Source of the DNA: Octopus vulgaris
Taxonomy: Eukaryota
Length of the DNA stretch: 64,000 nt
Direction of reading: 5' to 3'
Assembly: GCA_951406725.2 (NCBI GenBank)
Contig: OX597814.1
Coordinates: 100,812,001-100,876,000 of the forward strand
The notes beneath the pieces are model-generated. The model had not been told where the DNA came from. It searched no databases and saw nothing but the letters and a program-made list of their open reading frames with translations. Of the stretch, positions 15,496-58,259 are shown piece by piece. How positions within the stretch are numbered: position 1 is the stretch's first letter; each line of letters starts with the position of its first letter. The position numbers and the translations under genes were made by a program.

Positions 15496-15833
<338 letters not shown>

Positions 15834-15835
15834 GT

Positions 15836-15854
15836 GTTCGATTCTAGGCAGTGA

Positions 15855-15926
<72 letters not shown>

Positions 15927-16115
15927 CAACAACATCGAAAAATACCTTAGGAATAAGAATTCTGGTTCGAAATTTCCCCAAGACACCTGATGATGGCTGG
16001 AGGGTATATCAGCCGAAACGTTGTGTTAACAACAAACAAGATGAGGACAAATATCCGTCAAATGTAAATAATGTAAATAATGTATATAATTCTTCATCTC
16101 TTAAATATAGAACTG
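15836..16115 (+). mobile_element. Inverted, 5'-truncated second copy of the same element, starting at the B-box
   Basis: gttcgattctaggcagtgacctgaa-(AAT)n-atcgaaaaataccttaggaataagaa...aatgtaaataatgtaaataatgta mirrors 15496-15785 and has a longer tail. Confidence 0.8.
15982..16027 (+). ncRNA. Minimal type I hammerhead ribozyme motif
   Basis: gacac CTGATGA t ggctg-gagggtatat-cagcc GAAAC GTT gtgtt. Stem I gacac/gtgtt, stem II ggctg/cagcc, palindromic minimal stem III aacgtt. Confidence 0.8.
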
Positions 16116-54225: not shown

Positions 54226-54551
54226 GAGGATTATATATTTATGTATAGTTTGAGACAATCAGTAATCTTAGCTCCGGCATTTGAAACTCCGAGTACTATT
54301 ATGACAACTTACTGATTGTCCTATATATATATATATATATATATATCGATAAGAGAATGAATTATCCTATGTTTACCGTCACCATGGAAAATTCGATGAA
54401 CCGATACCAGGGTAGCAAATTCACGTCAGAAACACGGTTGAAGCGACCTGTCTAAGGGCAGAAACTCCGGGTTCATGTGCAGAAATTTTTGTGTTATATA
54501 TGAATAAATAAATGAATGGAGTTGAACGAAGATGTTAACAGAATTCCTTTA

Positions 54552-54633
54552 CTCTCGACATATGTTTCGAAGACAACATGCTTTCATTCCAAAGGAATAA
54601 ACGGTGCAAGATGCAATCTCCTCATCAGGAAAG
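54552..54633 (-). ncRNA. Hammerhead motif (mirror copy)
   Basis: Reverse complement: ctttc CTGATGA ggaga...tcttc GAAAC atat GTC gagag. Confidence 0.78.
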
Positions 54634-54868
54634 AAAGGGAGCCTCTCTCAACAACAAGACAAGCAAAAATTGCGATGACTGCCTACATGGTAAACAAAAC
54701 GATAATAAGCGTTTTAAAGTGTTATTCCTTTAACCCATCTCTTCCTACTATGTAACTTTGACGTCAATTCTACTAACGGTTTTTTTAAACCACTTATTAT
54801 CGTTTTGTTTACCATGTAGGCAGTCATCGCAATTTTTGTTTGTCTTGTTGTTGAGAGAGGCTCCCCTT

Positions 54869-54950
54869 CTTTCCTGATGAGAAGATTGCATCTTGCACCT
54901 TTTATTCCTTTGGAATGAAACCATGTTGTCTTCGAAACATATGTCGAGAG
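54869..54950 (+). ncRNA. Minimal type I hammerhead ribozyme motif with extended stem II
   Basis: ctttc CTGATGA gaaga...tcttc GAAAC atat GTC gagag. Confidence 0.8.
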
Positions 54951-54988
54951 TAAAGGAATTTTGTTAACATCTTCGTTCAACTCCATTC

Positions 54989-55068
<80 letters not shown>

Positions 55069-55124
55069 GCGTGTATATGCACATGTAGAGGTAGGTATGT
55101 ACATATATGTTTTATTTCATTTAG

Positions 55125-55205
<81 letters not shown>

Positions 55206-56628
55206 ATATATGGAATTTAAATATATACAACTGTTTCAGTAGGATTTTATTGAGGTATTCATAGATTATATCGTAGCATATCCAGGTAAAATTTTAAACA
55301 AATATAAATAGGTGGGATTGTTGTGCCTAGCCACATCTCTGCACATCAGTAGCACACAAAGAAAGCTAGGAATAGCAGAATTAACCTCATATCACCATCC
55401 TGATGTGCTACAACGGAAACAACAAATTCAATCATATATCTTCAGAGGCAACAAAGTTTGAAAAGAAGACGTAATAATTACTCATTCTTAATAACACGTC
55501 GTTGGTGACCACGATCAAGTGATTATCTGAGATTAAGCAAAAAGAAATCCATCCAGCCATTTTCGCCGCCAATTATTTCTGGAATGGTCATGCATGTAGA
55601 ATCCTCAGTCAACCACTCCCTTGGGGCAAACAATTGTAACTACACTTTCCTGCTGGATTCCCAAGCTTGGCTAAGTGTTAATATCGATATTATATTATCC
55701 AACTCTTAGGCCTATATTCAAGGTCTCCCGCCTGTTGGATCGGTGCAAAGATATTCTTCGATTACTTACTGAGGTATTGAGAATCAAACGTCTAAATTTA
55801 AGTGCACGAAATATTTTGAAATCTCAGCAAGAGGAGGGAATGCAGCAACATAGGGAACCTTTGTATAATCGTTTGATCTGCTAGATATAAAAACCGAATA
55901 CTCCTCAAATAAAACATTAGATGTCTTTAAACTACGCAGGGAATAGTGTGTCATGTGGTCATAGATACATTGTATCTGCAGAAAAGATTGTAAAGTCATT
56001 AATGGAATGCCTTAGATCAAAAATTCACTTCATCACAGATGACTTGAACGAAACAAGTCTAATAGCAGACTTTCTGAAGGGAAAAATGTAGATTGAACCA
56101 TAGTATATATAGATGTATATATAAAAGGGAAAAAATGTGATGGTACAAGGCTCGAAAACTTAAATTACTTATATTGGTTCTATAATGTCTTTTTCCTATC
56201 AGTTTATTTTATTTGCACTTGGAAATGGATACACATTTGATAATATTTTTATCAGTTCAGTAACGTGATATTACGGGAATAAAATTCAAACCAAGTGTAT
56301 CATCATGATAAGAAATCAAATGAAATGAGAGAAACATCTGTAAAAATGTTGTGTTGTAAAACATATAATTGTAAATTGAGAACAAACTGCCAAACGAAAA
56401 TTAACTGCTGCAGCAAAGTTGAAAAGAACTGTAGGGTGCCGGGTTGATTTGCAATATTTACGTTCGTCCCTTTCCAGCATATGTGCTTGTCATCCGTCCT
56501 TAATCGTTAATATCCGTAATATACTGTGTCAAAGAAATCTGTTAAATACTGGTGGTTTAACGCGCACGCAGGCACACATGCATGTATATATGAGACAGAT
56601 AGTTGGTGAACCAAACAGCAGTACTCAA

Positions 56629-56661
<33 letters not shown>

Positions 56662-56839
56662 TTGAGTAGTTGAATGAATTATCTTGTTATGGATAATTCG
56701 GTTAACCGATACCTGGGTAGCAAATTCACATCAGAGAAGACACGTTTGAAGCTTTCGTGTGGAAATTTGTATGTTTTTATTTTTAAATGTAAATATATGA
56801 AAGAATGGAGTTGAACGACGAATTAACAAAATTCCTTTA

Positions 56840-56922
56840 TTTTCGACATATGTTTCGAAGGCTGCATATTCCTAATTGCAAAGGAATAAGGAGTATATTA
56901 TGCCACTTTCTCATCAGGAAAA
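56840..56922 (-). ncRNA. Hammerhead motif (mirror copy)
   Basis: Reverse complement of the left arm gives the same core and stem I (ttttc/gaaaa). Confidence 0.78.
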
Positions 56923-57142
56923 GCAAGGAGCTTATGTCAACATCAAGATACACAAAAAACTTTTAGATGACTGCTCACACGGAGCCCATAGTGAAAATGA
57001 GTGTCTCTTTAAAAAATTCCTTTATAAAAATTCCTTTATAAGGAGTGTCTCTTTAAAGAGACACTCATTTTCACTATGGGCTCCGTGTGAGCAGTCATCT
57101 AAAAGTTTTTTGTGCATCTTGATGTTGACATAAGTTCCTTGC

Positions 57143-57225
57143 TTTTCCTGATGAGAAAGCGGCATAATATACTCCTTATTCCTTCGCAATTAGGAATATG
57201 CAGCCTTCGAAACATATGTCGAAAA
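57143..57225 (+). ncRNA. Minimal type I hammerhead ribozyme motif with extended stem II
   Basis: ttttc CTGATGA gaaagcggcata...tatgcagccttc GAAAC atat GTC gaaaa. Confidence 0.8.
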
Positions 57226-57260
57226 TAAAGGAATTTTGTTAATTCGTCGTTCAACTATTC

Positions 57261-57315
<55 letters not shown>

Positions 57316-57479
57316 TTAAACTTAGCAAACGGATTGCATTTAATAAGTGCTTGAGAGAAATCGCATTATAAGTTATTTTTGTATCTTTTCTGATGATCTT
57401 TACACACAAACGGATGTATATATATAAAGAAAGAAGCCAATACCAACCTGAGAAAAAGAACAACTCGGTATGATAAGAT

Positions 57480-57735: not shown

Positions 57736-57987
57736 ATCCAAGGATCGAGATGTCGGAAGAAAGTTATCTTCAAGCAATCTGTAGTAAATATAACAACTTT
57801 CAGGGACAATAGTGGTTTATTGAGACGGAAGGTTGTGGATTATTTTCTTATCGAAAATAGGACTGCTAGGACCTTTGAGAAATCCAAGGATCAAGGTGTA
57901 GGAAGAAAGTTAGCTTCAGGCAAACCGTAGTAAATATATATAAAAAAACAACTTTTAGGGACAATAGTAGTTTATTGAGACGGAAGG
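57736..57987 (+). repeat. Diverged direct repeat (57736-57832 and 57882-57987)
   Basis: atccaaggatc.ag.tgt.ggaagaaagtta.cttca...agggacaatagt.gtttattgagacggaagg occurs twice. Confidence 0.85.
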
Positions 57988-57992
57988 ATATC

Positions 57993-58127
57993 TTGATTAA
58001 ATGGAAGCTTACATTGTCGCAAGGAGGTATATGTTACCACACGTAAGAATCAATCAGAATGTGTGATTGAATCTTCCATGTGTTAACATGTACCTCCTTG
58101 CGACAATGTAAACTTCCATTTAATCAA
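57993..58127. repeat. Long imperfect hairpin
   Basis: ttgattaaatggaagcttacattgtcgcaaggaggta / tacctccttgcgacaatgtaaacttccatttaatcaa, continuing inward to aatca/tgatt. Confidence 0.9.
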
Positions 58128-58259
58128 CATATGCTTGGCCTGGACAGTAGCCTGCGGTATACACCTCATTTGGATATTTACCTCTTCCGAAGTCCCGCTC
58201 GCTATGAAACATATATAGCCCGGATCTTATCTACTCCATTCCTTAACTCTTGTGTGTAT

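Follow-up and report, generated by a model that had tools for sequence, protein, structure and literature searches.

Two palindromes of the 64-kb window, by which we mean the whole stretch of Octopus vulgaris DNA analysed here, are 5'-truncated insertions of two separate, related, high-copy families of Penelope-like retrotransposons (PLEs). Very probably they are old insertions of elements whose ORF has Hydra-clade motifs, the mirror half of each palindrome having likely been made during insertion. The window is AT-rich and microsatellite-rich and belongs to a genome of 2.8 Gb. We regard its palindromes as ordinary PLE by-products and not as a new ribozyme system.

The inverted arms of element 1 span 54495-54718 and 54784-55007 (224 nt, 96%), and those of element 2 span 56744-57013 and 57052-57321 (270 nt including TA, 88% ungapped). 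Gapped alignment of arm against arm gives 207/215 identical aligned bases for element 1 and 223/229 for element 2; arms of element 1 aligned in the same manner to arms of element 2 are 72-79% identical. All four outer ends are flanked by (TA)n. In both elements the left arm, in sense on the minus strand, continues into a tail and then (TA)n, the right arm, in sense on the plus strand, ends at an inner end point adjoining (TA)n, and the truncated 5' ends abut in the middle. The repeats of both elements are not terminal because of the extension of 110-150 nt found on the left arm only. Alignment of the arms, together with reading of the cores and flanks, confirmed the earlier note's description of two palindromes with hammerhead cores on both arms and (TA)n at the ends. 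Its term "tail-to-tail" is wrong, since it is the truncated 5' ends that meet; the arrangement is head-to-head, as Arkhipova 2013 (PMC3846280) names it in describing it as the usual form.

Element 1 starts at its tailed end with (TA)n (54322-54346), followed on the minus strand by the family-1 tail (54346-54494). This tail is delimited by the inner and the outer 3' end point, about 150 nt from each other, and in near-full copies continues into the 5' leader of the ORF. The left arm, a 5'-truncated pLTR in sense on minus (54495-54718), contains a type I hammerhead motif at 54557-54628 (minus; stem II of 53 nt) with predicted cleavage after 54557. The head-to-head junction (54719-54721) has about 3 filler bases. 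The apparent spacer at 54722-54783 (plus) is ordinary upstream element sequence that belongs to the right arm and is present in this arm only. The right arm proper is an inverted tail-less pLTR (54784-55007, plus) reaching (TA)n at the inner end point, with a type I hammerhead motif at 54874-54945 (plus) and predicted cleavage after 54945.

Element 2 has (TA)n at its tailed end (56628-56661), a family-2 tail of about 110-125 nt (56662-56769, minus) and a left arm that is also a 5'-truncated pLTR (56770-57013, minus), with a type I hammerhead motif at 56845-56917 (minus; stem II of 54 nt) and predicted cleavage after 56845. Its junction (57007-57066) is rearranged: 14 bp are duplicated within 57007-57041, and 57043-57066 form a perfect 24-bp palindrome. 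The right arm, an inverted tail-less pLTR (57052-57266, plus), has the type I hammerhead motif at 57148-57220 (plus), with predicted cleavage after 57220, and is followed by the (TA)n of the right end (57265-57312). The predicted cleavage C residues noted previously on the plus strand, 54945 and 57220, were correctly positioned; 54557 and 56845 are their minus-strand counterparts.

Other repeats are present in the window. An inverted repeat of 73 bp (89%) and two direct repeats (57 and 46 nt, 146-155 nt apart) lie just to the right of element 2, at 57984-58136 and 57736-57987. A third head-to-head palindrome, with 226-nt arms (94%), occupies 15497-16084; it has hammerhead-like cores at 15594 (minus) and 15987 (plus), belongs to an unrelated family and carries (AAT)n in its inner arms.

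Exact genome matches to a 17-base core number 4,360, against none for its reversed control, so the palindrome families are not due to chance. At about 1.6 core matches per Mb, rough arithmetic gives some ten pairs as close as these two elements genome-wide, and their 2.3-kb spacing needs no special cause. A first look returned 2,956 candidates for element 1 and 2,123 for element 2; 40 of each were scored and the top 30 of each fetched, sets that are biased toward copies with a long tailed arm. Families 1 and 2 are about 70% identical, with synonymous sites near saturation. Their unit is about 3.2 kb long and the 5' ends vary among copies, as in 5' truncation. Copies that have extra 5' sequence lead into an ORF with a GIY-YIG endonuclease at its end, and the same type of RT-EN ORF is present in family-2 copies. 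L085 and L086 are near-full, consisting of pLTR and tail, a broken RT-EN ORF and a second pLTR, with direct repeats around the ORF that are 98% and 96% alike; ORF pieces with RT and IY...YIG motifs are found in L085, L086, L031, L080 and L117. The PLE origin proposed in the earlier note is thereby supported, the longer family copies holding an ORF with RT and C-terminal GIY-YIG.

At E<=0.001, relatives number 3,072. One annotated in Octopus bimaculoides is 65% identical to the family RT, and Argonauta provides two further close matches. The public proteins XP_014779971.1 and GAB1599935.1 are fragments of an RT of this PLE type, and their name, "GATA zinc finger domain-containing protein-like", looks like a mis-annotation. 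A Pfam search of the family ORFs gave no RT or GIY-YIG family match, and a word-based protein search with the endonuclease part gave no match among longer proteins. Neither linker-less Hydra families nor the present hammerheads are treated in the literature covered, which leaves out most subscription papers, Repbase and Dfam, and both families are apparently undescribed.

Motif reading and by-eye comparison with the alignment published by Craig et al. 2021 (PMC8557442), the source of the RT and endonuclease marks of the Hydra clade used here, indicate that both families carry such marks. SDKT, with DKT instead of DKG, is found in L076, L078, L080, L085 and L086; the family RT also has YRDD, and RIRWL stands at the place matching the N-terminal RWK motif of Hydra elements. 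Around the conserved E and N, the family-1 endonuclease reads CNIC..E..N..CKH and that of family 2 reads CGVC..E..N..CMH. A Neptune/Nematis placement was dropped, as the RT has DKT and fits the Hydra alignment. Of 80 loci examined, 13 family-1 copies were readable across the region of the CxCx5C linker, and the linker is absent from all 13, as it is from the two family-2 copies read. Its position is occupied in both families by an in-frame Asn-rich stretch of about 115 codons. CxC is present in 37/37 endonuclease-bearing homologs among the best 150 homologs (29 scored by script and 8 by reading, one with longer spacing) and in the 9/9 Hydra rows published in Fig. S7 of PMC8557442. Given the absent linker, we would file families 1 and 2 as Hydra-derived and not as typical members.

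The hammerhead core CTGATGA...GAAACATATGTC is found on all four arms of the window, and the elements CUGANGA, GAAA and UH on 4/4. Both core halves are intact in 31/37 family-1 arms and 36/41 family-2 arms. In genomic copies, selection on the core gives no clear signal, with changes of 1.3% vs 2.7% in family 1 and 1.9% vs 1.9% in family 2. Applied to 24 aligned copies, the named structure has 91.5% of its cells paired, against 35-44% in slid controls, and the paired-cell count was equalled by 0/500 shuffles. Four pairs are changed on both sides, a number equalled by 174/500 shuffles; the 24 rows come mainly from two families and thus record few independent events. Energetically, the minimum is 2.2-4.3 kcal/mol below the hammerhead fold; z is about -1.5, and the consensus fold is without stem III. 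Rfam made no hammerhead call on the window elements. Its microRNA and WsnRNA46 matches were discarded, being below gathering scores and on simple repeats or hairpins. As Rfam misses this long-stem hammerhead, similar motifs are likely undercounted in genomes of this kind.

In both window elements, either strand bears a single sense hammerhead, with the antisense arm transcribed first, and the predicted fold of the whole element pairs the hammerhead core fully. The earlier note's picture of dsRNA bounded by self-cleaving sites is not supported, because there is a single sense core per strand and this core is predicted to be buried in duplex. For read-through RNA the prediction is a long hairpin in which the ribozyme is silenced and which is not bounded by cuts.

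An inverted arm is present within 1.5 kb in 13/30 family-1 loci and 18/30 family-2 loci. For family 1 its outer end falls at reference position 286-287 in 13/13 cases, and the inner ends are spread from 1 to 241. When 30 core matches (25 loci) were taken in chromosome order, self-inversion was seen at 11 loci; the first (TA)4 after the core came at 47-86 nt in 17 matches, at 185-220 nt in 9 and elsewhere in 4. The 3' ends are of two classes, tailed and tail-less, with end points about 110-150 nt apart. The tail can be borne by the inverted arm (L074, L075, L078, L080, L084) and can be missing from a direct arm (L085). Minor alleles are common to paired arms more often than expected, 24 vs 4.3 over 13 loci and 15 vs 5.2 over 17 loci (L045, whose inverted copy is tailed, excluded). 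In the window, the arms of element 1 have none in common and those of element 2 have two (0.6 expected).

Because the junctions vary and paired arms share minor alleles, the inversion was likely formed at each insertion, from one source, though the shared variants could alternatively come from later gene conversion between arms. A fresh inversion at each insertion had already been put forward in the earlier note. The varying inner ends, the fixed outer ends and the shared rare variants speak for it; the identity argument given at the time falls, having compared arms of different families. The check suggested with it, identity of arms within versus between elements, does not bear it out either: own-arm identity is 95.5% in element 1 and 95.0% in element 2, equal to the family background (means of 95.3% and 95.6%), and 11/29 and 21/29 other copies, respectively, match better than the own arm. 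Identity within an element is rejected as proof of fresh inversion for both. Averaged across loci, paired arms are slightly more alike than the family background (96.3 vs 94.9 and 96.1 vs 95.5).

We favour a mechanism with two priming events at one target. By analogy with PAc, for which in vitro work (PMC11167929) describes cleavage and extension of both target strands and RT starts at two internal sites bounding the tail, the GIY-YIG endonuclease would nick both strands of a (TA)n tract and each nick would prime reverse transcription on pLTR RNA. Two fixed start points, separated by about 110-150 nt, would serve for priming, one generating a tailed and the other a tail-less end. Both cDNAs would stop early and be joined head-to-head with few or no filler bases. 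The hammerhead would be the normal pLTR motif of the family, carried along. The family ORFs, the two end points, the variable inner ends, the (TA)n at the ends and the variants common to paired arms are directly seen; the nicking, priming and joining steps are our interpretation.

The inverted arm might instead come, in the same element class, from fold-back self-priming of one nascent strand, as in the Discussion of Arkhipova 2013 (PMC3846280). This possibility, which we consider doubtful, predicts a palindromic junction like the perfect 24-bp palindrome of element 2, is compatible with the shared rare variants as well, and accounts for the 27/31 inverted arms that lie within the span of the tailed arm; these loci fit fold-back equally well, in a locus search that favoured long tailed arms. 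At the other 4/31 inverted loci, of which element 1 is one, both arms contain sequence absent from the partner, with the tail-less arm extending further 5' than the tailed arm, and hence neither arm was copied from the other. Two priming events also account better for outer ends that are fixed and adjoin (TA)n on either side. With thousands of copies in the genome, a statistical test of two-nick priming versus fold-back is within reach.

That the palindrome itself propagates, as a MITE or palindromic retrozyme with fixed terminal repeats, is very improbable, even if small size, lack of coding sequence, high copy number and palindromic form would suit it. The repeats do not lie at the termini, the arms range from 46 bp to several hundred bp, the junction is different at every locus, 17/30 and 12/30 loci are without an inverted arm within 1.5 kb, and the upstream sequence leads into the RT-EN ORF. 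A MITE, with its fixed terminal inverted repeats and uniform length, was accordingly rejected, and so was a non-LTR retrozyme, defined by direct tandem units each with a hammerhead (definition from bioRxiv 10.64898/2026.07.22.740005), since the unit forms no tandem array within the window. Inverted repeats beside microsatellites are hard to assemble (PMC8557442), yet an artefact of fold-back chimeric reads is scarcely credible when the arms differ at 8 positions in element 1 and 6 in element 2, besides indels, end at family-specific end points, and include one arm with sequence absent from the other.

(TA)4 is found at 58/60 3' ends. For a background of 5.2%, it also flanks 36/44 inverted outer ends and 12/27 uninverted 5' junctions; 9/80 loci ran past the fetched DNA in the left-end tally. 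Several of the 15/27 uninverted 5' junctions without scored (TA)n are chaining failures. Insertion into (TA)n, another proposal of the earlier note, is supported by the 58/60 3' ends and by the left-end counts relative to their 5.2% background. The presence of TA at truncated 5' junctions favours a pre-existing tract over one added by RT. Any target-site duplication would be masked, both ends being in (TA)n. AU microhomology priming is not needed as a cause of TA targeting: TA-like bases do occur at the end points of families 1 and 2, but the outer end of the young family described below has only one base in common with its target.

Craig et al. (PMC8557442) tie the linker to (TA)n targeting, and also report Chlamys elements that favour microsatellites without it. 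As the linker-less octopus families still sit in (TA)n, the linker is likely not needed for this targeting. We think it probable, with some reserve, that two autonomous Hydra-derived families lost the linker and gained an Asn-rich spacer, yet filled the genome with copies by the thousand, with priming on both strands of (TA)n; the linker would then be dispensable, and targeting would reside in the endonuclease core or in the priming step. The surprise is only moderate, given the Chlamys elements and the N-rich RT-EN inserts already known from Adineta.

The same genome has a separate, very young family of Hydra-type PLEs (L119-L130, e.g. G000:C13:36410251-36412377). Its 63 scored matches are nearly all stop-free, most with an open frame of 727 aa, and 12 copies differ from each other by 0-28 positions per 2,127 nt, from which recent activity seems likely. 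It has an intact CxC linker, a hammerhead motif with a short stem, a distance of about 70 nt between its two 3' end points, and (TA)n at 12/12 3' ends. In two of its loci, L120 and L126, long inverted copies of the 3' half of the element are found upstream of the ORF, joined directly at the inner end point of the 5' pLTR, which suggests that this point is a joining or cutting site too.

A linker-bearing Hydra family of this kind could have mobilised the linker-less families in trans, in which case they would be uninformative on the role of the linker in (TA)n targeting. The young family with its intact linker and (TA)n ends makes this conceivable, as does the lack of any uninterrupted full-length ORF among the copies of families 1 and 2 that were read. 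We nevertheless find it unlikely. Between single natural copies of the family-1 and family-2 ORF, pN is 0.13-0.17 and pS 0.63-0.79 in thumb and endonuclease, the GIY-YIG residues are retained, and the Asn-rich linker is common to both families. Estimates of dN/dS are 0.10-0.14 for the thumb and about 0.4 for the linker, dS being saturated in the endonuclease. These values point to purifying selection on the ORFs of both families and, pN being low relative to pS, linker-less proteins were likely the working enzymes. The flanks of the young family match neither pLTR, except for one 19-base match. Retrotransposition of families 1 and 2 by their own proteins thus remains our preferred reading; that they retrotransposed is deduced from copy number and ORF selection. 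Linker-bearing and linker-less families in one genome are a ready pair for in vitro comparison. Microsatellite choice and inverted-copy formation by PLEs are stated as open in PMC8557442, and the linker-less families amount to a natural loss of the proposed targeting motif.

The layout of the window elements, pLTR with optional tail and inverted 5'-truncated copy, is already published (PMC8557442, Fig. 2 legend; PMC3846280; PMC11167929), and hammerheads on opposite strands and (TA)n targets are in print as well. For Penelope-13_HM, PMC8557442 lists a hammerhead on either strand together with an inverted copy that is 5'-truncated. Like the canonical PLE insertions described in these sources, those of the window have a head-to-head inverted copy, a one-sided tail, two end points and a palindrome or microhomology at the junction; their tail of about 110-150 nt is longer than the 30-40 bp given there. 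Longer tails may be common in the Hydra clade, the young family of this genome having about 70 nt.

The closest relatives are the C-terminal EN+ PLEs of the Hydra clade, exemplified in PMC8557442 by Hydra-1_Obim and Penelope-13_HM. Families 1 and 2 resemble them in the DKT motif and a putative RW(K) motif region, in the C-terminal GIY-YIG whose E and N are framed by CxxC and CxH, in (TA)n targets and in a type I hammerhead motif with a predicted short palindromic stem III. They differ from them in having an Asn-rich stretch and no CxCx5C linker, RWL for RWK, a stem II of 53-54 nt (against about 11-24 in the Hydra motifs listed), a unit of about 3.2 kb and a hammerhead sequence unlike that of Hydra-1_Obim. 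The type I core and the predicted stem III of 1-2 bp with palindromic loop are shared with the PLE hammerheads of Cervera and De la Pena 2014 (PMC4209133), which are thought to act as dimers; that paper also records pairs of motifs on opposite strands, at distances of 100-700 bp. The very long stem II with internal loop and the lack of an Rfam call set the octopus motifs apart from those described. An in-frame asparagine-rich insert (about 30%) between RT and EN is known from Adineta vaga Pen2a (PMC3846280). The Pen2a insert is 1.5 kb long, in low-copy elements, unlike the roughly 115 codons that replace the cysteine linker in thousands of copies here. New at the level of the families are the replacement of the linker by the Asn-rich stretch, the stem II of 53-54 nt and the tail of about 110-150 nt. 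The structure is therefore real but known, and the two Hydra-derived families add one testable twist to it.
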